Of a stretch of 64,000 nt of DNA, positions 6,921 to 62,769 are shown one piece after another. Each line of letters starts with the position of its first letter. Positions within the stretch are counted from its first letter, which is position 1. A program made the position numbers and the translations under genes. Origin of the DNA: Psammoneis japonica (lineage: Eukaryota). The stretch covers positions 124,001-188,000 of the forward strand of contig QPGO01000003.1 of NCBI GenBank assembly GCA_008632985.1, in the 5' to 3' direction. Under the pieces are notes generated by a model. It saw nothing but the letters and a program-made list of their open reading frames with translations, ran no database searches and was not told where the DNA came from.

Positions 6921-6921
6921 A

Positions 6922-9498: not shown

Positions 9499-9659
9499 TG
9501 GATGAACGGTGAAACAGCATGCATGTGACTCGCGGAAGGGCTCATGTAACTATGTACAAGCAGCGACTTTGTGTCGTGTGTGTCGTGTTGTATGCAAGTC
9601 TTGTCAGTGTTGCAAAACATCAACATTTGGACAAGCCTGTGCTTTTGGCAGCAAAAGCA

Positions 9660-10420
9660 TGATTGTTGGCTGCCTTGGAGGCACTGATCATTTCAAAATG
9701 GAGGTGTGCATTGATCTTTCCAAAGAGCCAACAAATGAAAGCATTGCTCAGCTTGAGGATAGATTTCTTGGTTCTTGCGGCATGCTTGCTGTTCCATTCT
9801 GTGATCCAGCACATCATTTCACAGCAAAAGTGAAAATTGAAGACTGTCAAGATTCTTGGTGGTGGTCACACAAAGAAAGAGAGATGGAGAAAGCTGTTCA
9901 GGGTCAAGGGCAGGTGCAGGGGTTGCAAGAGGAGCTTGAAGCTCTTTGGTGGTGCCAGCAACAATCAGGGGACACAAAATCTTGGTGGCATTGATGAAAA
10001 GGTGCCCGCTGCAGAACTGACACAATGGACTTTTGGTGCAACCTTTTCAACCTTTTTGTCACAAGAAAAAGAAGATGGGTGGGATGACTGCTTTTGTGCA
10101 ACATGTCCACTGGCACACACCAAGCGCCCCAAATGTGATCCAAGCTCAAGATTTGTTCAATGCTGTTCTCATTCATGGAAGCAAGAAGGGTTGTGCAAAG
10201 CAACCCATGATTGCTGAGGAAGCAAAATCTGTTGGCAATTGACTGAAATGAGGAATCTGGTTCAACACACACTCAGCAAAGTGCACGTGACTTCAACATC
10301 TTGCACTGTCAGCACTTGGATGAGTGCTCTTGCATTGTTTGTGATGCTCTTGTGCCTGCATGCACAGCAGGTTTCTCTTTTCCCTTTTCCACTCCCTGCC
10401 ACAGCAATGTTTGTGTGGCA
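9660..10420 (+). pseudogene. Hypermutated, frameshifted duplicate of the 3' part and 3' UTR of the 7525-9030 gene
   Basis: Aligns with ~8460-9230 (EVCIDLSKEP vs EVCVDLSEEP; KLFRVKG; KSVGN*). Many TA->TG/CA and CG->TG/CA changes plus indels. Confidence 0.9.
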
Positions 10421-10649
10421 AGGGCCCAGCCTCTGACAAACAGCACACTTTGCCTGCCAAGAAAGCAGCACCCTTGGGGGTCGTGGAAAGGAGGGAGATG
10501 TGCATCCTCACAGTGATGATTTTGGAGCTACGTTGTCGGATGTCCGTGCACATTTGTGCTCTTTTGTGCTTGCTGTTCCTCTTTGCTTGCACTCACTGCA
10601 TGTCATTCATTTGTTTCCAGATTAAAGAAATTGTTTCCGATGAATGTCA

Positions 10650-13400
10650 CAAACTGGTCAGAACTTTCCCAGCCAACGTTGAGCAAATCAACTTCATTGC
10701 TCTCACTCCATGAAGAAGCAACCGCATTGCTGCCGCTTGTGAGGTTGCCAACTCATTGATGGCAGGTGATGGTGTCAACAGCATGGTTTGCACACGATGT
10801 TCCTTTGAACATCTAGAAAGCTGTGCCATCTGTCCTCCCATGTGCTGTCAAATGCTGCTGCAAAAGGCTTGGACTGCCAAGTCTCTTGTGGACAGTGACC
10901 ACAAGCTTGACGCAGTGTCAGAGGCCACAGATGCAAACTGCAGTCACCTGGGCAGAAGGAGGAAGTGCAAGACAACGGAAACCAGCATGGCAGACATTCT
11001 CAAGGAAAAAAATTTGATCCTTGGGTGAAAAAAGTGCCAACCGCCAGACACCCCAATTGGGCAAAACAACAAGCACTGGGGAGCAACTTCCTTCTTCCCA
11101 ATGGATGAGAACAAGTCACAACAGTTGCCCACTGATTTCAATCTCACCAATTGGAAAAGATCAAGAATTTGTGGGAAAGGCAGTTGTTCTTCATTGAGAA
11201 AAAATGGGGCTGCCAGATTCAAGTGCAGTCCTGTCTGCATGTGAACTGGCATGCAGTGATGGGGGAACAGATTCTGCAAAGAATGAGCTTGCCTTGGAGC
11301 CAGGTGGTGACATTTGTGTGTTGCCCAATTTGCGCAATCATCCATGTTCCTCATTGCATCCAAGGGATCTGACCATCATTGACGAGTGCAATGTTGCTGG
11401 AATCGATGCTCCTGCTGATGGCAAACAACTTTTTCAAATGCTTCAATTGCCATGAGAGATTGCCAGACAAGACCTTTTGTCTCAAGCTGCCAGCATGATT
11501 GCAGATGAATGCAGAAAGTTTTGCTCCATGGACAGCGGGATCAATGCAACAGGTGGGAAATGGAGCAGAAGCTGTGGCGTGGAAGCAGCAATGCCGGGAT
11601 GCCCACCCAGAGTGCCCAACCAAGCTTCTTCAAGGTTGTGGTGGCGGTGGACACTGCAGCTGTCTGCGATGGAACACAATGATCACAACAGGGTGCAACA
11701 AGTGCCACGAGACAAAAGGTTGCCAAAAACCATCAAAGATGGCCAAACTGCCCCCTGACGAACTGTGGGAGGTTCTGAGAGAGTTCCACGCACACACATC
11801 CTCAATTGGAGCAGTGACTTGGCATTTGGATGCAAGCAATGGGAAGAAAAATGATCACAATCACATTGCTTTGGCCTCACATTTTGTCAAAAACTGGTCC
11901 GTGTTTCTGTCCCAAAAGAATGTCAACAAGCTCATGGAGCGAGCATTTTGTGCCTGCAACAAACAGCTGCTTCACACACTTGTCATGCACTTGGTTGATC
12001 ATTGACAGACAGTTGGACAAGCTGGAGTTAAACACAAATTGTCCACATGCGGAGTCCTTGATGTCAGTCTTGCAAGAACACTTGGATGCCATTGACCTTT
12101 GCACACTCAGCAGCCAGGAAGAAATTTCTAAGGCACAAGAAAAGACACCATCCATGGCGGAAACACACGTGATGTCCAGTTGCAGCAATGGAAGGTGCGT
12201 CAAGATGAAGGAGGGTGAGACTCAAACAACAATGCTTGGGTGCATTGCATGGCTGTGGATTTTGTTTTGCGATTGCTGCAATGGAGCCGTTCATCTCAGG
12301 CACATTGCAGAGTGCAAGGGGTTGGTTTGCAGGGAGTGCAACGGAACTCCACTGCCAGCTTGGTCTGTTTTAACTGCAATCTCTTGGCCATCTTGGGAAA
12401 GAGTCCTTTTGGCTCTGTCTCAACCAAGAGGCAAGCTGTTCAAGTGCATTGTGCAATTGGTGAAAGAGGCAAAATGTGGTGGTGACCTTAGCAAGGTTTG
12501 CTCTTCATTCCACCCAAGGTGGCAGAACACAAACAAAAGCCTGTGTGGCCGCGACGGCAATCCTGAAACCAAGGATTGTCCATCTCAGTTCATTCATTTT
12601 TTGGAGGAGCAAGACAGAGTGCTGTGCAATCCAAACTCGACAGAACAAGAAAACAACACAGCTCGTCAGTTGTCAACAGATGGAAAGAAACACAAGGAAA
12701 CAGGCGCACCAGAAAAAAAGTGGGAAGCAGTGCAGCTGGGAAGTGCAAGAGGCACTTTGTGCATCCAATCTGGTGCCTGCATTGGGGATTGTCCTTCTGA
12801 GAATGCCTTGCATGCTGCTTTAAATGATGATGATAAAAACGGATTCCATTGGCACCTGGTTGACACCATGGCAGACAGCCATCCCTTTGAATGTTCTGGT
12901 GGAATCAAGCCAGAGGAGGCTTGGAAGACATGTGAAGCTGCACGGAGACCAGTGCGCAACAACAAAATGCCAGCAACCATGGCATGCCTGGGCTGGCTCT
13001 CTTGCCACCTGCACTGTCTAAAGAAGCATGGTTTGAAAGAGGACTTTATTTTCCTGCATGATGATGGCACAGTGTTTCATTGCCCATGCAATGCAAGGAG
13101 TTGAGTGCTGCTGCCATGAAGACACATGGATTCAAACACCAGTTTGAGTTCTTTGCAGATGACAAATGGAGTGGACTGGAGAAATTTGTTGCCAAATGCA
13201 ACCACACAACTGACCCGGAGAGTGTGTGGTTGCATTCCAACCTTGCAGCCTGCCACCAAAAAATGTTGACGGAATTCGGGAAATTCATGTGAGGCAAAAA
13301 ACTTTGTTTTGATGATTTGTCATGCTTCACACACACTCCTGCCTCCAGAGCACATGTTGCCATTTAAAAAGATGTCCGGCAACTCATCCTTCATGTTGAC
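10650..13400 (+). pseudogene. Decayed long coding region inside repeat block, possibly a second ORF of the adjacent transposon
   Basis: Overlapping protein-like + strand fragments (11499-12005, 11830-13104, 13080-13292) lacking Tyr. Family not recognised. Confidence 0.35.
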
Positions 13401-13899
13401 AACAAACAACATCTTTTTGTCCAAGAGCTCTTGATTGGACATGGTGCCGGACAGAGACGGGTTGGTTGCCTTGGTGCCATCCTCTAATTTTTTTCAATGC
13501 TTGTTTTTTGTTTTGTGCCTTTCTTTCATTTTTTCCCTCTGCCAACAAGCATGTTTTTCTGACAATGCTGAAAGGTGCGTGTTGGTGACATGCCCTCCAT
13601 TCATCAATGCTGAAACAAACTGTTCTCACTCATTTCCCTTTCATCATCGCTTTGCTTCTTGCACATTCTCCCAAAAACAACAACCTCTTTTTCATTGTCA
13701 CTTGGAACAAACCCATGCAATTGCATTGGAAATGAGCTGTTGGTTCCATCATTGTTTCTGCATGCAACGCGAGCAAAGTCATGCCATTGCCCAGCCTTGC
13801 ATCAGTTTGGGTGGGCGCTAAATCTCAGCTCATGTTCCGACTGTAGATTCAACTCAGAACACTCCACAGTGTGCCTCTGTTTTTTTTCCCGCTGGTTTC

Positions 13900-16800
13900 A
13901 ACGGAACAAAAAATCTGCTGCATCCTCCTCCAAATGAGCGCTTTGTTCCCTTTTCATCTTCAAGGTTCCGGTGCACTTGCAACATGTTTTTTCGAATTGG
14001 TCAACAGTGCGTGACCCAAGTTGAGGGGCAATGTTGTGTTGGGTGGCAAATCATCATTGGCAAGGGGATGGACAATCAAATCACTCACTCTCTCCAACAG
14101 ACTCTGCTTGCACAGTCAGCCAGCAAGCTGATGGGTGAACTCTTCTTTGCCTTGCAAGGCTTGGCATGTCTGGCTGGGAACCAGACTCACCTGCCGCGGC
14201 ATCCCATCCGGAGAATGTGCCCAATCAATGAAGAGCAGTGATGAAGTGAAGAAGATCATGGAACTTTGACGTTTTCCATCCATGTGTGCCTTTGCCATGA
14301 CTGATCATGCTGCACAGCTCAAACATCAGAAGAACAAGGTGACATTCAATGTCAACATGATTGGTGCGTGAGTGCAGGTGACAACCACAGCTGTAAAAGG
14401 AGTGGAACAACAACAGTTTGTTGAGCAAGAGCAACAGGTGATCCACATCGTCACAGTCCTCTGAATGGCCAGCCGGCTCAAGGTTGAGGCTCTTTGGCCT
14501 GTTGCGGAATGGAACAGGCAACTCCTTTTCAATTTCAGAACAGACCATTGGTTGGTCATGGACAGTCGCCTGTGTGTTTGGTGCCTGGCGGCAGTCTGCA
14601 CAGCATCTAAAACTGTCAGAGACGGAGGAATCGTCATTGTTGGGGATGCAGAATTGTTGATCTGGGTTGACATTTCTTGTTTGCATCCACACAATGTTGC
14701 AGCAGAGATGGGCTTGAGTTTTTGTCAGCTGCAAAATGTGAGGACATGTGTGCAAGAGCCTGTGATGGCCACATTGATTCTCCAGAAATTCGTTGTGGAC
14801 CGGGTTGTCATGGTCGCATTCTTTGTCAGCATGGGGCTTGTCAACCGGGGATGTGGATGGAGGCATCCATTGGATGGTCCTCCGGAGATGCTTCCTCTGT
14901 GTCACTCTCTTTGTTGTCATCTTGTGGATTTGGCTGGTGTTCATCGGAATCAAATGCTGACTCATCATCTTTGTCAAGCAAATTGTTGGGATTGTTGGCA
15001 ATGTCTTTGCCTTCTTTGTGCACATGACCATCATTGTCTTCTTCTTCACAATCATGGATCTCTTCTGGAGGCGGCTGGCCATCAAAATTGGAGGCAAGTT
15101 TTTCTTTGTCTTGTCAAAATCTGGATGGCAATGAAGATGGAGCATGCTCCATTCCTCCACAGTCTGACCCATGAGTGCTGTTGCAAACAGCTTCCCCATC
15201 TTTTGGTCACAGGTCAAACCAGACAAGGTGCAGAAGCCGTTTCACAGGACGACCAGTGGAAACTTTGATCTCTGACCTGGTCTGCACCACTGAGATCCAA
15301 ACGTGCAGTTTCCCAAATTGTTTGGTCAACCTTTGGTGGAGTCAGGCAAATCGTCAACAATGATGGAAAGCATCTGAGGGACTGTGCCACTTTGGAACAT
15401 GTGCATTGGATTGGGTGCCACAAAACCGAACACAACCTGACAATTCTCTCTCATCCGAATGGGAAAGAATGAGTTGTCAACCGTGTGTTGGCCAAATGCC
15501 TTGTGAAGTGTGGTGGAACAAATGTTCATGCACTGGACAACTGCACTGCATGCCTTGGAACGGATTGATTTGGCTTTCAACTTGGACATCACTGTGTTTG
15601 TTTGTGATTCAACAAACAGATGCCATGGACTGTCTGTGGAGCCGGGTGATGGTCCAAGAGCTGCAGCAGTTGAACGCTCCATCACTTCCTGAGAAAAACA
15701 CCTGCAGCAATGCAGTGGTTTGTTGCTGCACATCCAGGAAGTGTGACAGGCATGACCAATGCAGCAGGTGTTTTTGCGTCCAGAAACACGGCCAGTCACT
15801 TGTGCGGTGTTAACAGCATCACCCAACAATGTCACACTGTGAACAACAATGCACTTAAAACAACACTGATTGCCAAGTTGGACTTGGCAGACAGGAGGCA
15901 TTTCTTGCACTTGAATTGCAGATGCAAGAAGGACAGACAAAATGTGGTGACAATTTCTGACATTCAACCCAAAAACGGGGTTCTTCGTTTTGCAACCTCT
16001 GCATTTCAGAGTGAATCCAAGAGGACGCCATGCTTCAAAATGTTGGTGGGCACATGCCTTGATGAGAGTCACAGAGAAAACAAGTGGCTCCATCGAATGA
16101 GGTGCAACCTGTCCTTTCCCAGTTTTGTTGATGCAGTGCACCACAAACACATGAAAAGAACCAGGGATGGCGGGGACGTTGCAACCACGCAATCAGCTCT
16201 CCTGTGGGTTTCACCGTCCTTCATTTCAGCATCGTCACAAAGTTTCCAGCCACCATTCTTGTCCAGCATGGGTTCACTGGAGAGCACCTGAGACCAACGT
16301 GAATCAGCAGGAATGTTGACATTTGAAAGATTGGTGAAAAGGGGATCATCGAACAAGTCCTGCAGTTGCAGGGAAAATTCATGCCCAGGGATGCCAGGAG
16401 AAAGCTCCTGCTGCAGGTCATTCTTGAATTGGTTGACGATGGACACAGACTCAAGGGGGGGCACACTTCAGCACCAGAGCAACAATGCTGGGCAACATTG
16501 ACTTGAGCTTGGACATGAAAGTTCAAGAAGAGGGAATTTGTTGGGTGACAGACAACCCACCACTGGGGGGGAATTCCTCCTGCACAGTTCTCAGCAATTC
16601 ATCTGTCACACTGATTGGGACACCCTCAGAGTGACACAAATTCATTGTGTGGACCATGGATGTGGTTTTGCTGTTGATGACTTTGGGCGCCATGAGGTCC
16701 TTGTCAGCAAGAGGTGTTCAACTTGATCAAGTGCAGCAAAAGCACCAGATTTGGCAACCGCAGTGGTGGAACCCTTGGTGTCGGAAACAAGTTCTTCATG

Positions 16801-17230
16801 GTCAGGAAACTGGCATTCTGAAACATCATTGGCAAGGGGCAGAATGGCATTGTTGTGGGACACATGCATCTCTGGCGCAGATGAAAATGCACGATTGGGT
16901 TGCAACGGCCGGGGACTGAGTCACAAGCAACCTTGTGGAGTTGGCCTGGCGTTGGAGTCGGGCCCTGCAGTGACAAATTCAACGGGAGGAATGCCAAGGG
17001 CAGAAGAGGCAGCAACATCCACTTGTTCATCCGATTCCCCCCCTTTGGTGCTGTTTGCCATGAGCAGTGTTGGACTGATGAGAAGAAATGACACAAAGGC
17101 TTTGACAAAAGGACAGTTTGCAGGGAAGACAAGTTCTCAGGTGGTGTTGAAGACCAGTTGGGAGAAAACATTTGCCACAAACATGGGACAATCATTTCCA
17201 ATGGTGAAGGGGACACCATTGTTCATGTTG
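13900..17230 (-). mobile_element. Decayed Plavaka/EnSpm(CMC)-like transposase
   Basis: Fragments VHCINKTG..MEPLVFSVTLIK..AWRPLGF, RNCHHILSVLL, LLGD and GWKTSKFHDLLH resemble Plavaka-type transposases with Tyr->Cys/His. Many frameshifts; ends not found. Confidence 0.55.
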
Positions 17231-18444
17231 TGCCAACAAGTGAGGTGCCAATGAGTGGGATGAACCACGTGGTGAAAACGACATGTGGCAGGCAACAAAA
17301 TTGTGTTGCACAAGTAAACTCACATGCAAGCATGTGAGGTTGCAGCTTGGTTTGATGCACAACATCAGTTGTCTGCATGCCGGCATGCAGCACTTGCATC
17401 AAGCAATCAACAACGGAAAGACAAATCCAACTTTCCACAGCAACAGAAATTTTGTCATGCTGGCGTGCATCTCAGATTGTTGCTCCACCAGGTGTTGTGC
17501 CGCCAGAGATCATCACAACATTGTCTTGTCCCCTGCTCTGCAATGTTGACAGCAACAGCACTGGGTGGCTGGGTGGCTTGCTGCCAAGTCAACAGCTCCA
17601 TGCAAGCATCACAAAAGCACCAAGCTCAGTGCTGGAACAAGGTTTCCTGCACTCATTGGCGTGCAATCTTTTGATGTTTCTTTTTGTGCCATCAGTTTGA
17701 CTGACAACTCAGCAAAATCTTTGAGCAAAGCACCATCAAGCTGAGCAACACCAAACTTGGCTCAAACAGTGTGCACAGAGTTCTCCAACAAGAGCCTCTT
17801 CAAAGTTGACAAAGCAGCTCTCATGCAATTTTCACACTCACCTGCCAACTTTGTAGAAACCAGTTTGCAACTCTCTTTTTTGCAGCCACAAATTCAGGGC
17901 AGCCCTGCCATGTTGGAGATGGGGATGATGGGGACAAGCCACACCACTCCCTGACTGCAGCTGCAGTTTAAAATCAAGTTGAAAATTGATGACTTGGTGA
18001 AAACTTGTGATTAGAAAAAATTGTGGGAGGGTTCAGATGAGGTGCCTGCTGCCTTGGGATGTCAGCAAGGCCCTCTGACAGCTGTCTCATGTGTCCAGAT
18101 GAGAGTGCTGGGCTCAGTTGCAGAAGAGAACTTGCACAATCATGCAAATGCAACATCGCCAATGGACAAAATCACACAGTGCAAATCATTGCAGCTGATG
18201 GATTGCAGTCTCCATGCCACACCCCATGTTGCAAAAATGAAGCAGCAAGTGATGCTGCACCCAAGCTGTTGCAAAACAAAAAATGCACAAAAATTTTGGG
18301 GAGAGCTGCAGAGTGACTCAGCACCATGCAGGCATGTTTCTCAAACTGCGTGCAAGCCTCATGTGGGAAGTTCAAAACTGCACGTGAAACTGTTGATTGC
18401 TGTCAACAAAGTTGCGCTGATTTCTCTTTCATGGAAAAGCCACC

Positions 18445-18570
18445 CATTGTTCAAAGTTGCCAAGTTTGAGCAAACGGGACTCAAAGTTTGAGCATTTGTT
18501 CAAACTTGTGCAAGTTTGAGCAAGTCGCTCAAACTTTTGCTCAAACATGACATGTGTTTGAGCAATTGCG
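18445..18570. repeat. Array of TTTGAGCA/TGCTCAAA motifs (related array at 20500-20577)
   Basis: Several copies in both orientations. Perfect palindrome TGCTCAAACTTG-C-CAAGTTTGAGCA at 20514-20538. Confidence 0.7.
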
Positions 18571-18655
18571 CAACCTTGGCCCCAAAAGCTCACAATCTTC
18601 ATGATCACAGTCATGTGAGTCACAAGCATCCTGCAAAGACAAATGGTCAATTTAA

Positions 18656-19590: not shown

Positions 19591-19594
19591 TTGA

Positions 19595-19970
19595 GACATG
19601 TGCACAAATCATTCCCTTGATTTGATCAATCAGTGCACATGCACAAATGCGTGAACTTGAACGATTTTTGTTCAAGTTGCCATGGCAGTCTGATGCTGTT
19701 TTTGACAACTTGTTTCAACTTTGCAATTGTGAAAGTGGCACCAATCAATGATGAACACAGTCATGTGAGTTGCAAGCATCCTGCAAAGACAAGTGGGCAA
19801 TTCAAGACATGTGCACAAATCACAAATCATTCCCTTGATTTAATCAGTCAGTGCACATGCACAAATGCGCGAACTCAAACGGCTTTTGTTCCAGTTGCCA
19901 TGATGGTCTGATGCTGTTTTTGACAACTTGTTTCAACTTTGCAATTGTGAAAGTGGTGCCAATCAACGAC
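19595..19970. repeat. ~210-bp tandem repeat; first unit (starting ~18600) interrupted by the piggyBac-like element
   Basis: 19595-19750 aligns with 19806-19970, and 18600-18655 aligns with 19750-19805. Confidence 0.85.
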
Positions 19971-37479: not shown

Positions 37480-37724
37480 TGTTGCAATTTGTCCTTCTGG
37501 TGACTGTTTCAGAGCCACCTCAGTCCTCTAAGGTCTGATCCTGAGGCTAAAATGGACAAGCTTGTTGTCACAATGCTTTCTAAGAGTTGAAAGAGAACAA
37601 TGACTGCTTCCATCTTCCATCGGCTGTTTCGTTGCTTCACGTGGAACACACAAGCGCTGACGCGTGCGTCTTCTTCACGCTGTCTAATTTTGGTGTTTGA
37701 ACTTTTAATTCACCATTTCCAACA
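37480..37724 (-). repeat. 5' LTR of Copia element 1
   Basis: Direct repeat of 31328-31572, upstream of gag. Confidence 0.95.
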
Positions 37725-49100: not shown

Positions 49101-52100
49101 TGCAGTGTCCACCACTTTTGATGCATGTCTGCTTGTGTGTTCGAAATGAGTCAACCACTTGGGATGCTCAAGCAACAAACGTTTTTTGAACAATGCAAAC
49201 AAACAAGTCCTGGACGACATCACCATCGCTTGCACCATCACATGCAGTCTCAGGAACAGACTCTTTGAAGTCATTCCACAGCAGTTCCACGGCTTCGTCT
49301 GCGAGTTTTTCCCATCATGCAGTTGCACTGTCCTCCCCCAGCTTCTTTGTTGTTGTTTCATTGAAGCAACCCCAAATTGCAGCAAGCAATTGCAAACCAA
49401 AACCGAAAAACTCAGGAGACACCAAGGTGTGGTCCTCTTTTCCGACGCGGCCGCGAGCCTCGTCTTTGAGCCTGAGAATCTCGGGACACACCATTTCTCG
49501 AACAGATGGTGCCACTGTTCTCAATTCCATTTTGTCAACGACCATCTCATCAAGCATTGCTGTTGCTTTCTTTCCATTTTCAGAGCCTGCTTCAAAATGG
49601 TTGCATGCATTGGCTGTTGCCCAGCCCAGGAACCACGTCACCTCCTTGTTTGCGTCCTCCTGAGAAATGGAGTTTGCGGACGAGGCAATGGCTTCCCATT
49701 TCTTGTTGTCTTTTGCCAAGGCCTTCTCAACTGCTTCATCAACGCTGCTGGGTTCTTGGCAAATTCCGTCAGACATTGCGTCATCAAGAGTTCGTGTGAA
49801 TTCTTCTGCAAACCAAGCAGCTGCAAAGTCGACAATCAGCGCGTGGAATGCCAACAGCTTTTCCAGCTTGCCATCTTCTGTCATTTCTGCCTGCAGAGTC
49901 TTCAGGAGCATTGAATGGCAAGTTCCCATCCTTTCCATGTCTGTTTGCAATTTGCACACTTGAACCATGAAGGAACGCTCAACACCACGCCTGCCAAACT
50001 TTTCGCGTCCCTTTTCCATCTCGCCCCACAGGCACTGGCAGGCCGTGTAGAAGGCTTTTTGTCCTTGCTTGTTCAGTTGACAAAGGGATTGAAAGCAGTG
50101 TTCTTCGTTGGTGCCAACTGACAACTTTGCATGCTCTACAAAGTCAACATCACTCAACATCATGTTGTTGCACCGTGTCCTTGTTTCCGTGTTCATTCGG
50201 TCCAGCACCAACTTTGCGCCTTGACCACCTTTTGACTTGTTTGTTTCGATTTGTTGGCCAATGGACAAGTCAAGTGCATGAGTCGAGTTCCTGGATTTCC
50301 TGTCCCGCAACCATTCGTCCACCGTGGCATCTCTTTGTTTGTCCGCACGGTTGGTCAGGACATTGCCTGTCTTTGTTGGCGACTCTGCTCTGGTGACATC
50401 TTCGCTGTCATACATGGGGTTGCTGTCTAAGGCTGCAAATGCCTTTTGCAAGTCCACGATTCCTGTTGTGCTTGGGTGATTCAATGGTGTGTCACCTTTG
50501 TGCTGCCGTACAAGGGAAAACAAGGCTTCCAGAATGCTTGTGTTGGAGTGCAAGAATGGGATAAAAACCTTGTCTCCTGCCAGTTTCCACACAGTTTCTG
50601 CACAGACCATGAAACCGCAAATGCTCGCCCGCAGTGCGTGACAAGTTTGACTTGATGGGAACCATTTTTGCTGCTCTGTGGACTTGATCCTTTCAACTTT
50701 AGCTCCTCTTTCCCTTCTGGTTGCTCGGCGTGCCAATCACGAAGGTGCTCAAGCGTCACTGTGACCTTCTCCTTCCACTTTTTAATGTTGGTGGGAGTGA
50801 TTCGAGCCCATCTGTTCATGAACGTCTCTGTGTAGATGTTGGTCATGTGGGTGAGAAACTCTAGAGTCATCACGTCTGACATTGCAGTGTCAAATTCAGC
50901 CCTTTGAGAGCTGGCCAGATTGGATGCATTGATCTTCAAAAACTGGTCTTTCAACTCAGTGACAGTCTGAACCATGGTCTTGTCTGCACCAGTGACCAAC
51001 TCAGCTGTTGGGGCAAGCTTTTGAAGCTCCCCAAACAGGTGGTTGGTGAGCTCATTGATGGTGTCTGAGTGGAAAACTTGCTTGACCAAGTTGACGTTCA
51101 TTTTGTTCCACCTGTCTGGCTGCTCAGACTCGCGTTTAAGAGGAGTGTCTTGGATGCTCTTTTTCTTGTCTCTTTTGTAAAGTCGATTGATCGTTGGCCA
51201 GCCAAAGTAGAAGCCATGTCGCTTGAAACTTCTTGGCAAGGAAGAGTTGTTGGGCACCTCGCTGGAGCTCAAGAGAGAATTCCTCCCTCCTTTTGCATTG
51301 TGAACTGTGCAAAAGAAGACGCCCACTCTTCAAGTTGGGTCAGCGGGATTGACAAAGGAGCACACACAGCTGTCAAGCCAAGTGTCCAAGTCCTCGGGGA
51401 CCTTGCCAAGACAGAACATTTTTGCACACCTTGGGTTGCTTCCTCTGGCATCCAGCCCAAAGCCCGCCACAGCAAGCCCAGCAAGCTCGCACCCAAGGAT
51501 GGACTGCTTTGTCTGGCGCATGAGCTCATCTCCCGTCATCGCACCATTGCTGAAGAAGAACTCAAGTGGGTGGGTCTTGTTTGTCTCAGCACACCTGAAA
51601 AAGAACTGGTTGACGCACAGGGAGATGCTGAAGCTGTCCTCTTTGGCACTCTTCTCCTCTCCATTGTCCTTGGCCCCATCTTGCTCAACCAAGCTGTCGG
51701 CAGGCTCATCGTCAGTGACCTCCTTGTCAGTTTTCTTCACCAAAGCCAGAACCTCATCAGCCAGCTGGATCCTGTCTTGGTCATGAGCAACGACAATCCC
51801 AGTGCAGACAGAAGTCATTGGGTTAAAGCAGAAGTCAGATCTCAGCTTCATCTGATCACAAAGAATTTGGCCAACCACCAACTTGGAAGAGTCGCCCCTG
51901 AATGCCTCTGCAGCCCACCCACAGATCCTTGGGAATGTCCCCTCCTTGGGTGCCAGAGCTTTCTTGATTTGCTTCAAATGTGACAAAGACAGCATTGGAA
52001 TGATTCCAGACTCACTCCAGTGTTTGAAGCCTTTGTGACTTTCTGCACACAAGGCCAAGGCCATCCGTGTGAGCCGGGGGGAGAAGCTGCACTGCTTTGG

Positions 52101-55100
52101 TTTTCCTGCAGCTCTCTTGGCAAAGTTGCAAATGGCGTCCACCAACTCGTCCACCAGCTGCAATGACTCAGCTTCCACCTCCTTTGATGATGATGATGAT
52201 GCACCCTCCATTTCTGCAATGTGTTGGACCACGCACCCCAAGATCCTTTTGTGGGTGTGGGTCTTGTTGTCTTTGCAGCATTTGGCAGACTCAAACAGCA
52301 AATCACGCAGATGATCGTCATCGGAACCAATGTGCAGCTGGCTCTTGTCAGAATGCATGAATTTCCTAAAGGATTTTAATCGCGCTCCAGCTTGCCTCAG
52401 GTTTGTTGCCAAACTTGATGCCTTGGCCTCCAGCTGTTCCCGAGACATGCAGGTGTTCCTGGTGGTGGGCTTCACGTCTTCCGCCTTCTTGGACTCAAAA
52501 GTCTTGCAACGCTTTGCGGATTTGCAGCAGGTGCCACAAGGGTCACAGTCACCAGTGTCTGTTCTCCTCTTTTGCACAAGGGAAAACATGGTGCAATTTG
52601 TCATGTGCTCACTGTGACAATGCGACAGACACGGTCGCAAGCACACTTGCACATTTTGACTGTCACGGCCCAGCGGTGCCAAGTCGATCTGGTCACAGCA
52701 CTTGCAGCACAGTTTGACAATGGCCACAGCATCTGGATGGCACATGAGTTCCTCATCCTTCTTTTTGTCAGTGGCCTCACCGCTGCTGCCAATCGTCTCC
52801 ATGTGCAAGGCACTCAGTTTGCGTGTGAGTTGCACAACGGAAGGCACCAATGGGCCAGTCCAACTGCCAGCTGCTGCTGCTGCGACCTCTTCCTCTGTTT
52901 TTTCTTCACCACAGTCACCTTCAATGGAATCCCTGATGATGGCACGGGCCACTCGTTCCAAGGAAAATGAGTTTGTGACAGCAAGTGCATCCTGTCTGGA
53001 GGCCAGCGGCGCTTGGATGCATCCATGCTTGTTGGCGGCATCTGAGTTGGCCTCCAATGACACACGCTCAGAATCATGTGCAATGCCCACACTGTGAGCA
53101 GTGTCCAAATCCATGGGAGTGGTCAATTGGTGAAATGCTCCTCCAACACCAGGCAAAGGATCCAACTCAACAAACTCGCCATGCTCGGCAGCAAGACGAC
53201 GGAATTCTTGACTCCATTCCTCTCCATCAACTTGGGGCAAAAATGGTGTCTTGCAACAACCATTTCACCTTTTCCTTCAAAGCCTTGTCCAAGCAATCGA
53301 GTGAATGATGCTCTCAAAGCAACAGCAGATGCCTTGGTCCCTTCTCGAACTCGGCAATGACCCAACAATGGATGCGCGGTCCTGGTGGCAATGCAGCACT
53401 GTGCGATTTCCTTGCAGAAGGATTCGCAGTCACTCCAATTGCATTGGCACTGGTTGTGTGCCAGCAACTGTGACCTTGACATGTTGTGTTGAGTGTGTGA
53501 TGTCAGCACAAGTGACTGTGTTGTCGGTTGTGGCAGAATGTGAGCGCAAACTTGTCGGTTGTTGTGCGTTGCATCGCGGTGAAATTGTAAATTTTTCTGA
53601 TTTCGCCCCACAAAAATTCTCTCAGGTGCAGCACATCGTGACACAGCTTTCGTGGACGATCTGCGCGCGTGAGCCACCTCATCGTTTTGTCGTTCGTGCA
53701 TTGCACGCGGGCGACAACAGACGATTTGTGCACCTCTGGGATCATCATCCTTTGGATGGTTGAGTGGCACACTCATGGCTGCCTCCAGCATCTTGAGATG
53801 CACATCCTTTCCCATGCTGCAGTCTCTGACAAGACCCTTCTTGATGCTTTTGCAATGGCAATCATCGCTGTTTGTGACAAACAGGAGTGCAGTCCATGTC
53901 TCACACGTGGACTGCTTCATTTCCTTTTTCTCTGCTGTTCCTGCTGCGGCACACTCCTTTTGGTTTTCAGTGAAACCGTCAAGCAGTTTGTTGCCCAATC
54001 TTTTGCTTGTTGTGTCACGTTGATTCTTAAATCGTGATGGGCAGTTGTTGATCAGCTCTTGTTCTTGTTGCTTCACCTCCAATGGGTTCTTGGGTGCTTT
54101 GGCAAGTGTGTGGAATGGGTGTCAACCCATCATGGAGTCATGTGTCAGGGTTTGGATCAGCTTCAGCAGCTCAACAGGATTGTCCCTGATTGTGTCGCAG
54201 GTTGGATCCACTTGCACTCTCTGCCTCATTGGTCTTGTGCAGCAGTCATCAAGAATCATGGCAAATGCCTTGTTCTTGTTCTCCTCAAACTGTTTTGTCT
54301 TGCTTTGACAATCTCTGAGTTCAGCCTTGCACTTGCACTCAAACTGTCTGTTCTCTTGTTCTGCTTCTGGTGAATCCTTTGCTTCATTGGACACCTTCAA
54401 GGACAGTGTTTCACCCGAGAAGTCTTGGTGCTTCATGTCTTCCAGTGATCATGCCAAGTGCTTTCCTTGTTTGCACTCTTTCTGCATGTTGCGCACAATC
54501 TTGGTCTTCACATCTTCAAATGTCATGTTTCAAGAGTTGCTGTTCATTGTTGACGGAGGGAATTTCATTTCAGGGTTAAAGCTCCTGTTGCTGTGCGTCT
54601 TCTTCTTTGATCTGGAAGACTTGGGATTCTTGTTCCCACTGCCTTGACCACACTTTTGGTCTTGGCCTTTCTTGTGTGGATTGCCAGCTCCTCTGCCACT
54701 CATCTTGCAGGCTGCTTGTTTCTTTGACAGAGAATGCAGACTTGATTTGGTGAGCTGTTTCACTCACATGCTTGCAACTCTTTAGAGTGAATGTTGAACC
54801 AACGTGCCAATGGCAGCAAAAGGGAATCTTGCAAAGCTTCCCCTGCTCTCAATGTGCACATCTTGGCTGCTTGTGCAGCCATGGATTGCCCAGAAGATTG
54901 CTCAATGCAACTTTGCACACCAAATGGATTTGGCTTCAACAGACACTTCTCAGCACCAATGACAATGGCTGATGTGCCAGATGACTCACTCCAAAGAGTG
55001 AGAACACTTCATTTTGGGGGTGACAGTGCAATGACAAAGAATGCATTGTCATCAGATGGGCCACATCAGGAGACAAGTGTCCACAGACTTCAACTCTTTC

Positions 55101-55114
55101 TGGGCTCTCTAACA
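46129..55114 (-). mobile_element. Older Ty1/copia element lacking RT/RNase H, with a P element nested in gag
   Basis: ~323-bp LTR copies at 46129-46452 and 54792-55114. gag starts at 54703 (MSGRGAG), Zn knuckle CHCCG..HKSSEC, protease IVLDDGS, integrase start (LCIDI; KDHVPKVE). No matching TSD. Confidence 0.8.
47836..53738 (-). mobile_element. Complete P-element-superfamily DNA transposon (5.9 kb), inactivated
   Basis: 27-bp TIR CAGAGGTGCACAAATCGTCTGTTGTCG and 8-bp TSD GGATCATC (47828-47835, 53739-53746). Transposase motifs CDQMKL, HNAKGGRN, NKMNV..KQVF and NTSILEALFSLVR; THAP-like C..C...RHHF N-terminus. Confidence 0.9.
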
Positions 55115-58100
55115 CCCTCGTCTAACTTGCTCCGACAGTGTGTGGGTGCATGTGCTGGCACGACTTGAGAACTAAGAATCAAGCCCTCAATCTCAGCCAC
55201 ACCAGTCTTTTTTTCAGCGAAGCACTTCCTTCACTGTGTTTCATGCAAGAACATTCAGAACAAAATGTGGTCTCATTGTGGCCAAGATGATGGCAGAGTG
55301 GGGCTGTTTTGTGCCCTTCATTCAAAAACTTTCTTGTTGGCCTGTTCCAGCCAATTTTCTGTGCAGTTTGGGGCATTGAACTCCTTCAAATTTGATCGTT
55401 TCAAAAGTCAAAAGGTGAGACACAAAAAAACATGAGTTTTGTGTGCAATCACCCTTTGATTTGGGAAAAACCTGTTTTCACTCTCCTTTTGACTCTTGAC
55501 TCAGGTTGTTGCAAAGTGCAGCGCACTTGATGTTGACTGAAAAACAAGTCAGTGACAGCTGTTGGGGCTCCAGTTGCAGCCCCTGATGATCCAGATGCTC
55601 AACTCAGTGCCTGGTGAACCAAAAGAGGCGCAGATTGTGCTTCTGGGTTCACCCCAATTTCTGCCAGGTTCCTTTTTTGTTGTGGCTGTCATTTTTGGTT
55701 GTTTTGCCATGGCAAAGCATGACAGCAATGATGGTTGAAGTGCACTGCAAAATGCAAGTGGGGTCATCAAGTGTCGGCCATTGAAATTTTGTCAAGCTGG
55801 TGCTGCAGCAAATGCCCCAGGTGTTGTCACTCAACACCCCCGGTTGGGTCATGATGAAATTGCTGATGGCGTTCTTTCATGGCTGAACTTTGTTTTGCCA
55901 TGCCAGGAAACAACAACCATCAACCATGATTCTGAGTTTTTCATGATTCTGAGTTTTTCTTGTTGCTTCATGGACAAGCGAGTTGTGGGTGCTTCCTTGT
56001 TGGTGATCAGGAAGCCACAAAATCCTGGCCAGACAACAGCTTGCACCACAGTCATGAGGGTGCTGCAACAACTGTCAGCTGTCTTTGTCAGAACTTGGCT
56101 GAACTCTTCAGAAAACTGTGTGCTTCTCACTCTCAGTGGCCTCCACTGGCAGCCAACTTGTGTCTGACAATGTGATTTCTGCCATGCACTGACACAACGG
56201 CAGCTTTTTTTCACTTGCCTCTTTGAAATGAATCACGACAAATTTCATTGGGCTGTCTTTGCTCAGAATGAACCAGCAACACCTGAGACTTGCTCTCATG
56301 CACAGCTGCAGACCGGGGCCAACAGCCAACACATTTTCAGGTGACAAATTTGCACAAGAGCGCAAAGCCATGAGATTTCTTTTCAGCACTTTGTTGCTTC
56401 AAGAGCACCCAGCACCTGCTGTCAAGCTGGCATTTGCTGTCCTTCCATCACCAACAGTGTTGAGGTTGGTCTGGACCTGCTCATGACAAGAAGCTTGTTG
56501 CCCTTTTGGCAAAGGGCGCAGAGTTGACTCAAGTGGCGCTGTGGACTCTGGCAGTTGGACAAAATCGGTGTCTGCATTGTGGCATCAAGTTGACTTGTCA
56601 CTCAATCAAGCAAGCCTGCCGAGATGTCATCTGCCACCAGCAACGGCGTTTTTGTGAGAATTGCAAAAGGCTTTCAAAGTCTCTGGCTCACACCAACACA
56701 CATTTTGTCACAAAGGACATTGAGCTCTTCACAAAGTGCGCACATGACAAAAGATGCAATTGCTTGACTGGGCCCAACAGGACAACAGATGCCACCCAGG
56801 TCGTTCAAAAGCACAAGGGCACAAAGCTCAGCAGCAAGAAGAACAAAAAGAAAGAAAAATGCAGTGCAGAGACAATGTGTGGTTGTTTGAGATGGAGGAT
56901 GCATTGTCTCACCCACTGGTTGAATGTCTGAGCCTGTGGATTCCAGGGTGTCCAGATGCGAGAGGCAGGGATGCCAAGGATCATGAGACAGAAAGCCCAC
57001 TCTGCAGAAGAAGACAAAACAGAAAGACATTCAGACACACATGCAGACAGCAAACCGACCAATCTGCAGCCAGCACAGTGCACGACGTCAGCACCTTGAA
57101 CCTTGAACCACGGTTCATCCACAACATTTGCATCTGCAGAGCGACATTTTTAGTGCCAGCGTAGAAACAGCACCAAGATCTTGTGCAGACTTGTGACGGC
57201 AAGACTGCAGCAGAAAGTTGCACATGTGCACTTGCTTTTCTCAACCCGAGACCTTCACCATGATGCTGGGAAGTGTTCCAACGGCCCTCGCAAGTGCAGC
57301 ATGTGCTGACAATCAGCTTGTTGCATCACCAACCTTCGAAGGAACACCCCACAATGCTTGTTTGTTTGAAGCTGTGTGGAAATTAAAGAAACTCAGTTGC
57401 CAACAATGAGGAATGAAATGTTGAAGCATTCTGAGGGTGCCGACAAGCAGCAACAAGGCGGGATTTCGTGTCTGTTCATCTTGTTGAACCGAGAGCTGGA
57501 AGATTGTCTCTTTCAAATGTTCAAGGTGAGTCAAATGTAAACACTGCAATTCAAAACAATGCCAAAATGTCGAAATGTGCTTTTCAATTTTCTCACTTTC
57601 AATTTCTTCTCTCTTGTGCACTCTTGAGAAGAAGCAAGAGTGCTCGATTGATTTTCGCTTCTGTTGCAGTGTCAAGGTCTGACATTGTCACATGAACATG
57701 CAAGAATGCGAGTGTGGTGGATCATGTGCCACATTTGCATCCGTTGTTTTTTTTTTTTTGCTCCATTCGACACCAGTTGTTGCACCTGTTGATTCCACCC
57801 GCTGCACCGAGGAAAGAAAGTGAGAAGGCCTTTTGGTTTTCGTTTCATTGTGGCACAAAGCTCTTGCATTGTCGTCAGTGTGTGTGAGAATGCGAGTGTG
57901 TGGTTTGAAGTGTTTGCCATTGACCAAATCTTGCTTTGTCTTTTGTTGCATGTTCTCACTTTCAACATCTTCTCTCTGTGGACTCCGAAGAAAAAGAAGC
58001 GAGCAGTTGTTTGATGCTCGCTTTCATTGCAGTGGCAAGCTCTCACATTGTCAAGTGGATGTTCACGAATGAGGGTGTGGGGGGTGCATCATGCACCACC

Positions 58101-58540
58101 ATGTTCATCCGCTCGTTTGTTGCTTCCCACACTCGACACAAGACGTTGCTCTGATCCACTCCACCCGGTGCCGAGGAAAACAGTGAGAAGGCTCAACAGA
58201 TTTTGGTTTCATGCGGTGCAAAGCTCTCATGTTGCAGTTTGGACATGTTGGAATGCAAGTGTGGCTTGTGCTCTTTGCTGCTGACCAAGTCGTTGCCAAA
58301 ACAGTCAACAAAGAAAGCGCACTGGCCAGCAGACGAAGATGGCAAAACAGGATTCCAAAAAAGTGTCGGCGATGTTCGCAACATTCTCGCCTCAAACCCT
58401 CGGTGCAGGCTTCCCACACATGCTCGGCAGGTGTCAAGGTTGGCACACAGACCCATCAAACCGAGGGTCTTAATGCCTTTACCCGACATTTCGCAACGGC
58501 TTTCGCTCATCGTCGGAGAAAAAAAAAATGTGTTTTGCTG
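55115..58540. repeat. TpA-depleted degenerate repeat block with decayed coding sequence (unidentified)
   Basis: Near absence of TA. Degenerate internal repeat 57790-57875 vs 58150-58235. Confidence 0.5.
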
Positions 58541-62668: not shown

Positions 62669-62769
62669 TATAGTATTTTTGCAATGGATATACAATGTCT
62701 CAACAAGGAGCTCAACGAAGATTCAAAGATGAGTTTGTTAGATCTCAGATACGATCTGACAATAGTTTG

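Follow-up and report, generated by a model that had tools for sequence, protein, structure and literature searches.

Probable hypermutation of TpA to TpG and CpA in the inserted elements of Psammoneis japonica, a process resembling that described in Bigelowiella natans

In our literature search, hypermutation that erases TpA was found to have been reported just once, in the unrelated alga Bigelowiella natans, a chlorarachniophyte (Rhizaria). As far as the available text of that bioRxiv preprint goes (Mettrop et al. 2026; 10.64898/2026.01.13.699255), integrated NCLDV and virophage DNA is hypermutated at TpA, and in mutation-accumulation lines A>G/T>C changes, always at TpA, account for 230 of the 231 mutations recorded in two viral regions (A>G/T>C makes up 210 of 211 in the NCLDV region). 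The rate in the viral regions is ~1000x background, with activity in some lines only, and the possible targets include a region of single copy number. The same text describes clusters, across the whole B. natans genome, of 1-kb windows that are depleted in TpA and enriched in CpA + TpG, as well as coding sequences enriched in reverse-transcriptase and DDE domains. A preliminary description of the DNA analyzed here stated that no equivalent was known, and this preprint overturns that statement.

Several better-known systems share some of these properties. RIP, found in Neurospora and other fungi, is likewise a transition hypermutation that acts in place on inserted or duplicated DNA, has sharp borders and disables transposons. 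It changes C>T mainly at CpA, creates TpA as well as stop codons and mutates both copies of a duplicate, while elements of ~400 bp escape it. Relatives of RID belonging to DNMT4 are present in many diatoms, according to the text available (PMC9998398). ADAR and APOBEC3 also produce deaminase-type transition clusters against selfish nucleic acids, ADAR acting on dsRNA with a preference for a 5' U and APOBEC3 on C in single-stranded cDNA, in both cases prior to integration. TadA and ADAT2 convert A to inosine beside a 5' U, as at U33-A34 in tRNA. TadA natively acts at UAC, and the early TadA-derived base editors prefer YAC. In the accessible portion of the relevant report, amphioxus ADAT2 deaminates DNA and is the one ADAT2 shown to do so, preferring 5'-GAA-3' for adenine and TCG for cytosine (PMC10354150). 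Lastly, 5mC deamination at transposon CpG yields TG and CA as its end products.

The DNA analyzed here is a 64-kb window of one genome, to which all of our counts refer, and both its host genes and its Copia elements point to a diatom. Six TA-poor blocks (~42 kb in all), their features and a host-gene segment outside them are listed below, with the strand given where one applies.

1..750: TA-poor block, truncated where the window begins; 2 TA in 750 bp, TA o/e of the first 1 kb 0.15
5762..7305: TA-poor block with a very high-copy repeat; 5 TA in 5751-7250, border TAs at 5761 and 7306
8461..9224, + strand: unmutated, TA-normal copy of a duplicated segment (blastn), which comprises the 3' portion of host gene 7381-9030 and some DNA downstream of it
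9592..20954: large TA-poor block of assorted repeats, most of them unrecognizable; 37 TA in 9751-21000 besides one 3-TA bin, sharp borders at 9591 and 20955
9662..10414, + strand: hypermutated copy of the host-gene segment, with TA and CG loss relative to the host copy
24476..39000: patchy TA-poor block; TA o/e 0.16, CG o/e 0.65
26301..26699: MITE copy 1, TA-normal, within the exonuclease-domain gene; 24-nt terminal inverted repeats
26700..27848, + strand: hypermutated DNA_pol_A_exo1-domain gene (Pfam E 3e-8); 0 Tyr in 403 aa
30149..30946, + strand: tandem duplicate, ~400 bp, 97% identical, with TA/CG-class differences between the copies
31328..37724, - strand: full-length Copia (Ty1) LTR retrotransposon, young and hypermutated
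32101..32490: MITE copy 2, TA-normal, within Copia pol; 31-nt terminal inverted repeats, ~26 TA in 32000-32599
45614..58470: TA-poor block, bounded by TAs at 45613 and 58471, that includes old direct repeats, a fragment of a Copia and a transposase relic
46453-47811, - strand: Copia fragment with an N-terminal match (tblastn)
51333..53264, - strand: probable relic of a P-element-like (TNP-like RNase H) transposase; 644 aa, 0 Tyr
62764..64000: TA-poor block, truncated where the window stops; 4 TA in 62751-64000, TA o/e 0.05, CG o/e 0.07

The strong blocks together hold 88 TA in 27,500 bp (3.2/kb), where base composition predicts 1,840 (o/e 0.05), and the patchy block 156 in 14,500 bp (10.8/kb), as compared to 840 in 21,660 bp (38.8/kb) for the pooled host stretches. 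TA is mildly under-represented everywhere, as its host o/e is 0.56. Among 1-kb windows, TA o/e lies at 0.39-0.71 in host genes, whereas most block windows show 0.00-0.16 together with TG at 1.45-2.04 and CA at 1.51-2.31. From host to strong blocks, TG+CA rises from 154.4 to 218.8/kb and CG falls from 52.4 to 20.7/kb. The combined loss of TA (-35.6/kb) and CG (-31.7/kb), 67/kb, thus approximately equals the gain of TG+CA (+64.4/kb). The depletion has sharp edges, with the last TA outside a block and the next one within it at 9591 and 9760, 24475 and 24715, and 45613 and 46329. In 250-bp bins, TA-poor runs occupy 1-750, 5751-7250, 9751-21000, 24501-39000 (patchy), 45751-58500 and 62751-64000, close to the block coordinates proposed in the preliminary description. 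Its proposed check of TpA and CpG o/e in successive windows, run over this stretch, gave low TpA values in the blocks, which have lost CpG as well. Its view that every repeat block is nearly TA-free while host genes are normal agrees with these densities, except that the two MITE islands (26301-26699 and 32101-32490) are TA-normal. The scarcity of tyrosine it had noticed in the Copia reading frames is borne out, with 7 Tyr in the 1,771 aa of three Copia pieces vs 27 in an FMO reading frame of 739 aa, and the motifs it read as having Cys or His in place of Tyr (NPCDPC, IKCFCITD and HPDCKSHTG) were each located.

Block content is varied. Summed word depth reaches 6769 at 6334-7000, vs ~60-120 in unique parts, and ranges from 1 to ~20x the single-copy level across 9592..20954, the open reading frames of which have no Pfam match. 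The patchy block combines an unknown element with the exonuclease-domain gene, the tandem duplicate, the young Copia and older TA-poor DNA. The transposase relic matches PF21787 at E 7e-4, short of the cut-off, and has an Atlas feature score of 0.93 with 212 shared features and a recognition value of 2172, under the tool's 2300 mark. In line with the preliminary description, which named LTR elements, DNA transposons and a host-gene duplicate, the mutated targets include LTR elements, a host-gene copy and the probable P-element-like transposase relic.

The direction of change is evident from the duplicated host-gene segment, the two copies of which are 75% identical. The host copy was spared and retains all 19 of its TA and all 41 of its CG dinucleotides. 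In the other copy none of the 19 TA is kept, 15 having become TG (9) or CA (6), and only 1 of the 41 CG is kept, with 32 converted to TG/CA, while TG and CA themselves are preserved at 47/58 and 40/53 sites. A>G changes affect 17 of 38 adenines that follow T (0.45), vs 12/130 after A (0.09), 12/111 after C and 9/99 after G. The process is therefore specific to TpA rather than WA, and the excess of TA to TG/CA over other contexts that the preliminary description had named as a check is present.

The same direction is seen in the element at 31328..37724, which is a Ty1/Copia retrotransposon by its LTRs (31328-31572 and 37480-37724, 97.5% identical, with TG..CA ends), the 5-bp target site duplication GAGAG on both sides, an RVT_2 domain (Pfam E 8.8e-9) and the gag-PR-INT-RT-RNase H order shown by its co-linear tblastn match to full-length relatives. 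Its tblastn matches to diatom Copia proteins extend over three pieces. When compared with 21 relatives, only 3 of 28 conserved Tyr are kept, 15 having become Cys and 7 His, vs 463/540 retained at other conserved columns (Fisher p 3e-17). Together with the 9 TG and 6 CA of the gene copy, these replacements bear out the earlier reading that mutation, on either strand, turned TA into TG or CA. Among related metagenome Copia loci, TA o/e falls below 0.44 in 0/80, and 0/120 related proteins are Tyr-poor (minimum 2.08%, median 3.75% Tyr, vs 0.3-0.5% here), so the Copia family is not TA-poor by nature, the possibility that would have undone the original proposal. The sole relative of the exonuclease-domain gene, P0241 (69% identity), has 14 Tyr positions, at which the gene has 0 Tyr but 7 His, 6 Cys and 1 Phe.

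The TA removal acted on DNA after insertion. The LTR pair of the young Copia differs at 5 sites (2 TA|TG, 1 TG|CA, 1 CG|TG and 1 other), and 7 of the 9 differing sites in the tandem duplicate are TA|TG, TA|CA, CG|CA or TG|CA. Since both pairs differ mostly in these classes, the changes must have arisen in DNA, post-integration. The old direct repeats at 46129-46448 and 54792-55110 (86% identical) contain 9 TG|CA discordant sites, for which the ancestor could be either TA or CG. By comparison, an internal repeat of a host gene that served as a control differs at 102 sites, of which 22 belong to the TA/CG/TG/CA classes and 49 are transversions. A rough hint as to rate comes from the young Copia, in which ~89% of the Tyr TAs are gone and the LTRs carry 1 other substitution in 245 bp.

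Repetition itself, or the repeat chromatin of the earlier proposal, need not be the cue. Mutation also reaches stretches with the depth of single-copy DNA (9669-10335 and 17673-18339), whereas the host copy of the duplicate is spared and a repeated MITE (two copies, 390-400 bp) is untouched inside mutated elements. The ends of the MITE at 26301-26699, where TA is at or above baseline, are 93% and 76% identical to the copy at 32101-32490, which splits the Copia tblastn match between 32497 and 32102.

A flank preference was also detected. Relative to a baseline of 80 related metagenome Copia loci, TA survival in the young Copia is 0.58 for YTAR, 0.136 for mixed and 0.030 for RTAY sites, and a model of independent strands predicts 0.133 for the mixed class. 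The corresponding figures for the strong blocks are 0.22, 0.039 and 0.011, with 0.049 given by the model for mixed sites. In a separate check, Tyr became Cys after a pyrimidine at 21/24 positions and His after a purine at 10/17 (Fisher p 0.0026). It appears, then, that 5'-TAY-3' is favored on each strand, equivalent to 5'-RTA-3' if T is the base attacked. The fit is imperfect, as RTAY Tyr sites gave 10 His vs 3 Cys where this rule expects 1:1, CTAG is scarcer in old blocks than the rule predicts, and the old saturated duplicate shows no sign of it (YTAY to 4 TG, 3 CA and 2 other).

The blocks are depleted in CpG as well, with an o/e of 0.36 in the strong blocks, and both this depletion and the CpG conversion in the gene copy are as expected of 5mC deamination. 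Because C-to-T processes cannot remove TpA, they do not explain the TA loss, which is an A:T to G:C change, just as the preliminary description had reasoned. The CpG decay looks like a separate, slower second component in the same blocks. At 26001-28000, CG o/e is still 0.96 and 0.72 while TA o/e is 0.30 and 0.11, CG is largely intact in young elements from which most TA has gone, and related metagenome loci (e.g. L060; CG 0.21, TA 0.60) show CpG loss without TA loss.

Given these features, we consider it likely that the inserted elements underwent DNA-level TpA to TpG/CpA hypermutation, probably of the Bigelowiella kind and with an element-specific aim, and possibly through an adenine deaminase. 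Several other explanations compete with all or part of this reading. An A>G change on one strand is a T>C change on the other, so all of the counts fit equally well with an attack on thymine, in which a TET/JBP-type oxidase would produce 5-hydroxymethyl- or 5-formyluracil at 5'-RTA-3' that mispairs with G, for an identical DNA outcome. Indeed, 5-formyluracil is mutagenic, and T is a 5-methyl pyrimidine in a YpR step, much like 5mC in CpG, with both steps decaying in the same blocks. We nevertheless regard this as unlikely, as neither an oxidase nor a modified base was seen in the 64-kb window, the CpG and TpA losses are separable at 26001-28000, and adenine deamination is the only published proposal for the B. 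natans phenomenon in the preprint text available. Error-prone resynthesis of the Pol-eta type (WA>WG) during repair of silent chromatin, as suggested in the preliminary description, has the attraction that TA is a hotspot of Pol eta and would yield A>G at TpA on both strands. We judge it highly improbable, since A>G after A is at background, level with C or G, the hierarchy ATAT>...>TTAA is unlike the WA pattern, and reaching 0/19 TA would require every site to be resynthesized repeatedly.

A sequencing or assembly artefact, in which silent DNA still has its TA but a base modification there causes G/C to be called at TpA, seems equally improbable. Separately assembled contigs of run X1 (word depth ~60-70) agree with TA-poor stretches at 0 differences (e.g. 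9169-10764 and 17454-18681), although X1 is probably the sample behind the assembly, has no library type on record and was compared as contigs, not raw reads. Furthermore, a systematic miscall would not make LTR and tandem copies differ at individual sites, the occurrence of both TG and CA at a site would demand miscalls that are strand-specific and settled in a different way in each copy, and B. natans Illumina data contain real de novo mutations of this type, according to the available preprint text. Even less credible is ADAR-like A-to-I editing of element RNA before reverse transcription, followed by integration of the edited copies. The best-characterized target here is a retrotransposon, and a 5'-U preference is typical of ADAR, as the same preprint notes in its available text (10.64898/2026.01.13.699255). 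However, the LTRs of one insertion are copies of a single template and yet show TA|TG and TG|CA differences rather than shared edits, the favored 3' neighbor is a pyrimidine, and the tandem duplicate, the host-gene copy and the probable DNA-transposase relic were mutated too. We give equally little credence to a TA scarcity that is native to the elements or that reflects selection on RNA against UpA; TA is mildly low even in the host, but the signature is missing from all 80 related loci and all 120 related proteins, conserved Tyr became Cys or His rather than following neutral codon choice, and the host-gene copy has the signature while its original does not.

Returning to DNA-level hypermutation, the process acts within individual inserted elements after integration, ends within tens of bases of the element border and changes either A of the palindromic TpA from A:T to G:C, with 5'-TAY-3' as the apparent per-strand target (5'-RTA-3' if T is attacked). 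It would be fast relative to the ordinary decay of methylated CpG, a separate process in the same blocks. TA to TG/CA changes never make stop codons and destroy TAA and TAG, so elements would be disabled by missense (Tyr to Cys/His), leaving long false ORFs. Per 1000 trinucleotides, TAA+TAG indeed number 4.1 instead of 16.7, the reverse of the TpA enrichment and new stops expected of RIP, which would also have mutated the host copy of the duplicate. The sparing of the MITEs does parallel the escape of short elements from RIP. Targeting would seem to single out elements and not whole regions, guided by small RNA, by homology or by a silencing mark. As to the chemistry, a tentative proposal with somewhat less than an even chance of being right is that a deaminase of the CDA fold (TadA/ADAT2-like) converts adenine to hypoxanthine, although no such enzyme was seen in the 64-kb window; 5'-TAY-3' resembles the native UAC site of TadA and the YAC of early base editors, but not the GAA preferred by amphioxus ADAT2.

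To judge from the preprint text available, this locus shares with B. natans the TpA-restricted A>G/T>C changes, both TpG and CpA outcomes and confinement to inserted DNA within an otherwise normal genome, here with block borders within tens of bases, and by this analogy the two processes may be of the same kind. In contrast, the main targets described in that text are viral insertions in which TA remains plentiful (TpA 3.3% and 9.2% of dinucleotides), with a rate measured in lines, whereas transposons and a gene copy are near saturation here, with CpG decay alongside. The spectrum there is almost purely A>G/T>C; the fixed signature here also includes C>T at CpG, probably from the slower process, two components that mutation-accumulation lines can tell apart. 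The available text states no flank preference to set beside 5'-TAY-3'. The present case would thus add a diatom-like host, transposons and near saturation to the Bigelowiella-type process. It is conceivable, though we hold this with less confidence than the chemistry itself, that diatoms, or at least this lineage, possess a natural deaminase of DNA adenine that is directed against individual inserted elements, reads 5'-TAY-3' and shares its origin with the Bigelowiella system. If so, it would be a true A-to-G counterpart of RIP, relying on missense changes for all of its silencing. It would also represent genome defence of long standing in the SAR supergroup, and nature would have supplied an adenine editor for DNA that is ready to use.

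The 1,087 TA dinucleotides of the window are very unevenly distributed, and both windowed observed/expected (o/e) ratios and pooled counts bear out the TA-poor blocks claimed in the preliminary description. In most 1-kb windows of these blocks TA o/e is 0.00-0.16, TG 1.45-2.04 and CA 1.51-2.31, whereas host-gene stretches have TA o/e of 0.39-0.71 and CG of about 0.8-1.07. When pooled, the host stretches contain 840 TA in 21,660 bp (38.8/kb), the five strongly depleted blocks 88 in 27,500 bp (3.2/kb, where base composition predicts 1,840) and the patchy block at 24501-39000 156 in 14,500 bp (10.8/kb). From host stretches to blocks, CG falls from 52.4 to 20.7/kb and TG+CA rises from 154.4 to 218.8/kb; the loss of TA and CG (67/kb) is therefore balanced by the gain of TG and CA (64/kb), and G+C content is unchanged across the classes (0.47-0.49). 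TG-minus-CA skew, followed along the window, showed no clear bias by strand or by transcription. Block borders are sharp, with TA at 9591, 45613 and 24475 followed by the next TA at 9760, 46329 and 24715, respectively, and they lie no more than tens of bases from the ends of elements. The claim of low Tyr content was equally accurate (7 Tyr in 1,771 aa of Copia frames versus 27 in the 739-aa frame of the flavin monooxygenase-like gene), and the three protein motifs quoted with it are all present.

Principal genes and elements of the window
1397-5537, minus strand: subtilase (Peptidase_S8) gene lying in two frames (4296-5537, 1397-4312)
26301-26699 and 32101-32490: MITE family, two copies of 390-400 bp, whose terminal inverted repeats (24-31 nt) start with GACGCGTTCCAG
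31328-37724, minus strand: full-length Copia element with 245-bp LTRs, TG..CA ends, a GAGAG target duplication and RVT_2, co-linear with full-length relatives
51333-53264: probable P-element-like transposase relic (Pfam E 7e-4, below cut-off; Atlas 0.93, recognition value below the tool's mark)
58692-60317, plus strand: LCIB/C-type beta carbonic anhydrase gene (domain E 5.6e-55, last 220 residues of a 541-aa frame)
60506-62722, minus strand: flavin monooxygenase-like domain fused to DUF6314, one 738-aa open frame

Three independent outgroup comparisons, using a host segment, the Copia element and an exonuclease-domain gene, indicate that TA was lost from the blocks by mutation. A 0.75-kb, TA-normal stretch (8461-9224), which spans part of host gene 7381-9030 and the DNA downstream of it, has a copy at 9662-10414, inside a block. 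The copy retains 0 of 19 TA, 15 of which have changed to TG (9) or CA (6), and 1 of 41 CG, with 32 of the 41 now TG or CA, while TG was kept at 47/58 sites and CA at 40/53. Per adenine, A>G occurred at 17/38 positions after T, 12/130 after A, 12/111 after C and 9/99 after G; it is high only after T, and the process is therefore TpA-specific rather than WA-specific. C>T reached 32/80 before G and 0.09-0.11 in other contexts, and a CpG process operates beside the TpA process in this copy. Copia relatives contain 2.8-4.7% Tyr. When the Copia element was compared with 21 of them, just 3 of 28 conserved-Tyr columns were kept (15 Cys, 7 His and 3 other) versus 463/540 other conserved columns (Fisher p 3e-17). 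Likewise, the exonuclease-domain frame 26640-27848 has a sole relative (69% identity), whose 14 aligned Tyr correspond to 7 His, 6 Cys and 1 Phe, with 0/14 kept. A search of viral contigs for relatives of this gene returned 8 pattern matches and 0 confirmed, and thus speaks neither for nor against the 24.5-31.3 kb element having come from a virus. Together with discordances between sister repeats, these three comparisons make the core proposal of the preliminary description, a TpA to TpG/CpA mutator acting on both strands, a sound one.

A Copia family that is TA-poor by nature is contradicted by 80 related metagenome loci, none with TA o/e <0.44 (range 0.44-0.78, several being CpG-poor), and by 120 related proteins, none of which is Tyr-poor (minimum 2.08%), with the qualification that both sets were chosen by similarity and may under-sample heavily mutated copies. 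A sequencing or assembly artefact is contradicted by contig matches and by sister-repeat differences. Independently built contigs from sequencing run X1 (word depth about 60-70) are identical to TA-poor 5701-6578, 9169-10764 and 10869-11537, and with zero differences to 14707-15128, 17454-18681 and 19927-21739. X1 is probably the sample behind the assembly, and the comparison used its contigs instead of reads, so the agreement does not count as independent, but an error confined to the assembly of the window is ruled out by it. The differences of sister repeats at individual sites likewise speak against systematic miscalling. Further repeat copies in X1 differ from the window mostly by transitions, with A>G at 35 places, T>C at 35, C>T at 32 and G>A at 38, and each transversion at 2-10; among 40 differences listed (149 more exist), many are CG versus TG/CA and a few TA versus TG/CA. 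As for RNA editing before reverse transcription, it is excluded by site differences between sister repeats in place. Both LTRs of one insertion come from a single template, so differences between them arose after integration. The LTRs of the full-length Copia (97.5% identical) differ at 5 sites, comprising 2 TA/TG, 1 TG/CA, 1 CG/TG and 1 other transition, and a tandem duplicate at 30149-30946 (97% identical) differs at 9, of which 7 belong to TA/TG, TG/CA and CG/TG-type classes. Older direct repeats at 46129-46448 and 54792-55110 (86% identical) carry 9 TG/CA discordant dinucleotides, the outcome when an ancestral palindrome is hit independently on one strand or the other. In the control, an internal repeat of the subtilase gene, 22 of 102 differing sites fall in these classes and 49 are transversions. 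The change was therefore made in DNA, in place, and the non-retroelement targets (the gene copy, the tandem duplicate and the probable transposase relic) agree.

The process is also fast. In the young Copia about 89% of conserved Tyr TAs are gone, while 245 bp of LTR hold 1 substitution outside the YpR classes and 90% of conserved Arg columns are kept; in the 26-28 kb stretch TA o/e is 0.30 and 0.11, yet CG o/e is 0.96 and 0.72. Thus, TpA is lost much more quickly than CpG decays or the background changes. The numbers here are too small for a figure but are compatible with the excess of about a thousand-fold measured in Bigelowiella natans.

In the strong blocks, surviving TA are non-random with respect to their flanking bases. 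Survival relative to the 80-locus baseline is 0 for ATAT, 0.01 for ATAC/GTAT and ATAG/CTAT, 0.02 for ATAA/TTAT, 0.03 for GTAC, 0.06 for CTAC/GTAG, 0.07 for CTAG, 0.08 for GTAA/TTAC, 0.25 for CTAA/TTAG and 0.26 for TTAA. We adopt 5'-TAY-3' (5'-RTA-3' if thymine is the base attacked) as a working rule for this preference, and group sites by the number of strands with adenine in that context (YTAR 0, mixed 1, RTAY 2). The young Copia shows survival of 0.58, 0.136 and 0.030 in these classes, with 0.133 predicted for the mixed class by an independent-strand model (geometric mean); in the strong blocks it is 0.22, 0.039 (0.049 predicted) and 0.011, and a host baseline yields the same order. The rule also bears upon Tyr codons, in which the coding-strand adenine always lies in TAY and the other-strand adenine only after a purine: of 24 Tyr>Cys changes 21 follow a pyrimidine, and of 17 Tyr>His changes 10 follow a purine (Fisher p 0.0026). 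Two misfits are the split of post-purine Tyr, 10 His to 3 Cys instead of even, and the depletion of CTAG in old blocks, which exceeds the prediction. In the old, saturated gene copy the rule is not visible, YTAY sites having become 4 TG, 3 CA and 2 other. The available text of the B. natans preprint gives no flank data (bioRxiv 10.64898/2026.01.13.699255).

Repeats as the targeting cue, as the preliminary description had it, are not supported. The TA-normal islands of the patchy block are the two MITE copies, 32101-32490 within Copia pol and 26301-26699 within the exonuclease-domain gene, and in both of them TA reaches or exceeds baseline and CG is normal, though hypermutated elements host them. 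Their target duplications are apparently 4 bp (TTTC, AGTC), and their ends are 93% and 76% alike, with unrelated inner parts. The host copy of the duplicated segment (8461-9224) is also unmutated, and segments at single-copy depth (9669-10335 and 17673-18339, depth summing contigs >=90% alike) are mutated. Given these observations and the sharp borders, copy number by itself is not the cue, nor is a state that spreads through a region. The cue either belongs to the element, as small RNAs, a homology requirement with a minimum length or a mark laid at insertion would, or bursts of mutation predated the arrival of the MITEs. In the B. natans data, as far as the preprint's accessible text describes them, the process is on in some lines and off in others, and one target is single-copy (bioRxiv 10.64898/2026.01.13.699255).

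A change of TA to TG or CA never creates a new in-frame stop (TAA>TGA replaces one stop by another), and it removes TAA and TAG. From host stretches to blocks, TAA+TAG on both strands drop from 16.7 to 4.1 per 1000 trinucleotides, and TGA goes from 19.3 to 23.6. Because of this loss, the blocks at 9600-21000, 24500-39000 and 45600-58540 hold 126 open frames >=110 aa on both strands, often overlapping, and the hypermutated elements are disabled by missense changes alone. Pfam was usable for only 3 of the 126 (RVT_2, DNA_pol_A_exo1 and a weak TNP-like match), with 2 further chance-looking matches; an Atlas search with ORF 11818-13101 gave no usable match. With long false frames on both strands and Pfam recognising almost no real genes, annotation pipelines will misread the blocks, and gene callers would over-predict genes in them. 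One TA-poor repeat, 6334-7000, has a summed X1 word depth of 6769 versus about 60-120 in unique DNA, or roughly a hundred genomic copies, with several alternative internal joints among contigs. A single N lies within a TA-poor block at 49059.

The host genes have long open frames and few, short introns, and the host is a eukaryote. We take the host to be a diatom on protein similarity, there being no near-identical database protein: named best relatives of the carbonic anhydrase are from Chaetoceros, Seminavis, Thalassiosira and Amphora (about 50-57% identity), and the Copia polyprotein has named relatives in Nitzschia, Fragilaria and Epithemia. The long N-terminal part of the carbonic anhydrase frame is without family match, most relatives being about 300-380 aa. 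Within the window, contigs of run X2 align to host genes only and those of run X3 to nothing, and both runs nearly lack the sampled words; X2 looks like RNA, though not recorded so. An X2 contig covering the host gene at 21713-22733 omits 21961-22049 and 22242-22333, probably two introns of ~90 bases. The internal repeat of the subtilase gene is 575 bp (1416-1990 and 2061-2629, 81% identity), in a Cys-rich frame (6.4%) with normal TA. A 151-bp segment, also TA-normal, is repeated beside two host genes (5427-5577 and 9247-9401, 86.5% identity), and one X1 contig links 5427 to 9260.

For a process demonstrably directional, TpA-specific, active on both strands, post-integration, sharply bordered and fast relative to CpG decay, the chemistry we infer is enzymatic adenine deamination. 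The enzyme would deaminate adenine in TpA to hypoxanthine, which pairs with C. tRNA adenosine deaminases target A34, whose 5' neighbour U33 is universal, and TadA natively acts on UAC. These contexts suggest adenine deamination, as do the proposal of it, with an ADAT2-like candidate, in the accessible text of the B. natans preprint, the only precedent (bioRxiv 10.64898/2026.01.13.699255), and the editing of DNA by amphioxus ADAT2, although the GAA preference reported there for adenine counts against it (PMC10354150). The main rival is the mirror of adenine attack, in which thymine in RTA would be oxidised to a base mispairing with G, and the sequence data fit it as well as adenine deamination. 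The earlier suggestion of a Pol-eta-type process fails, as its WA pattern is contradicted by A>G at 12/130 after A versus 17/38 after T.

To our knowledge, targeted hypermutation as genome defence was previously cytosine-only (RIP, APOBEC and 5mC decay). RIP is alike in purpose and in sharp borders, but the present process lacks the features that define RIP, its direction of change and its mutation of both copies. A literature search, with subscription journals outside its scope, turned up neither TpA loss nor A>G hypermutation for diatoms, and the accessible text of a paper on diatom DNA methyltransferases describes a RID-related DNMT4 in many diatoms and nothing on TpA (PMC9998398). The earlier statement that no equivalent had been described is outdated, since the 2026 preprint, the first report of an adenine- or TpA-directed version, describes how giant-virus and virophage DNA integrated in B. 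natans is hypermutated at TpA, the closest known case; the text available also mentions TpA-depleted clusters and coding sequences, rich in CpA and TpG, in which reverse-transcriptase and DDE domains are over-represented (bioRxiv 10.64898/2026.01.13.699255). As far as that text goes, the two cases share TpA restriction, both outcomes (TpG and CpA) and confinement to inserted DNA. CpG decay blurs the purity of the spectrum here, and a de novo rate was measured in B. natans. That case concerns a chlorarachniophyte and viral inserts, this one ordinary transposons and a gene copy, near saturation. We file the present process as the same kind as the very recently described one in B. natans, extended to a second, distant algal lineage, with new targets (ordinary transposons and a gene copy), near saturation, evidence of post-integration timing and a candidate flank rule. 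The apparent 5'-TAY-3' rule is one that every candidate enzyme has to reproduce. A 2018 review gave a DNA adenine deaminase as unknown in nature; if adenine deamination is true, a natural one would exist. Such a process may have an old origin and a wide distribution, and a simple map of TA versus TG+CA suffices to screen genomes for it.
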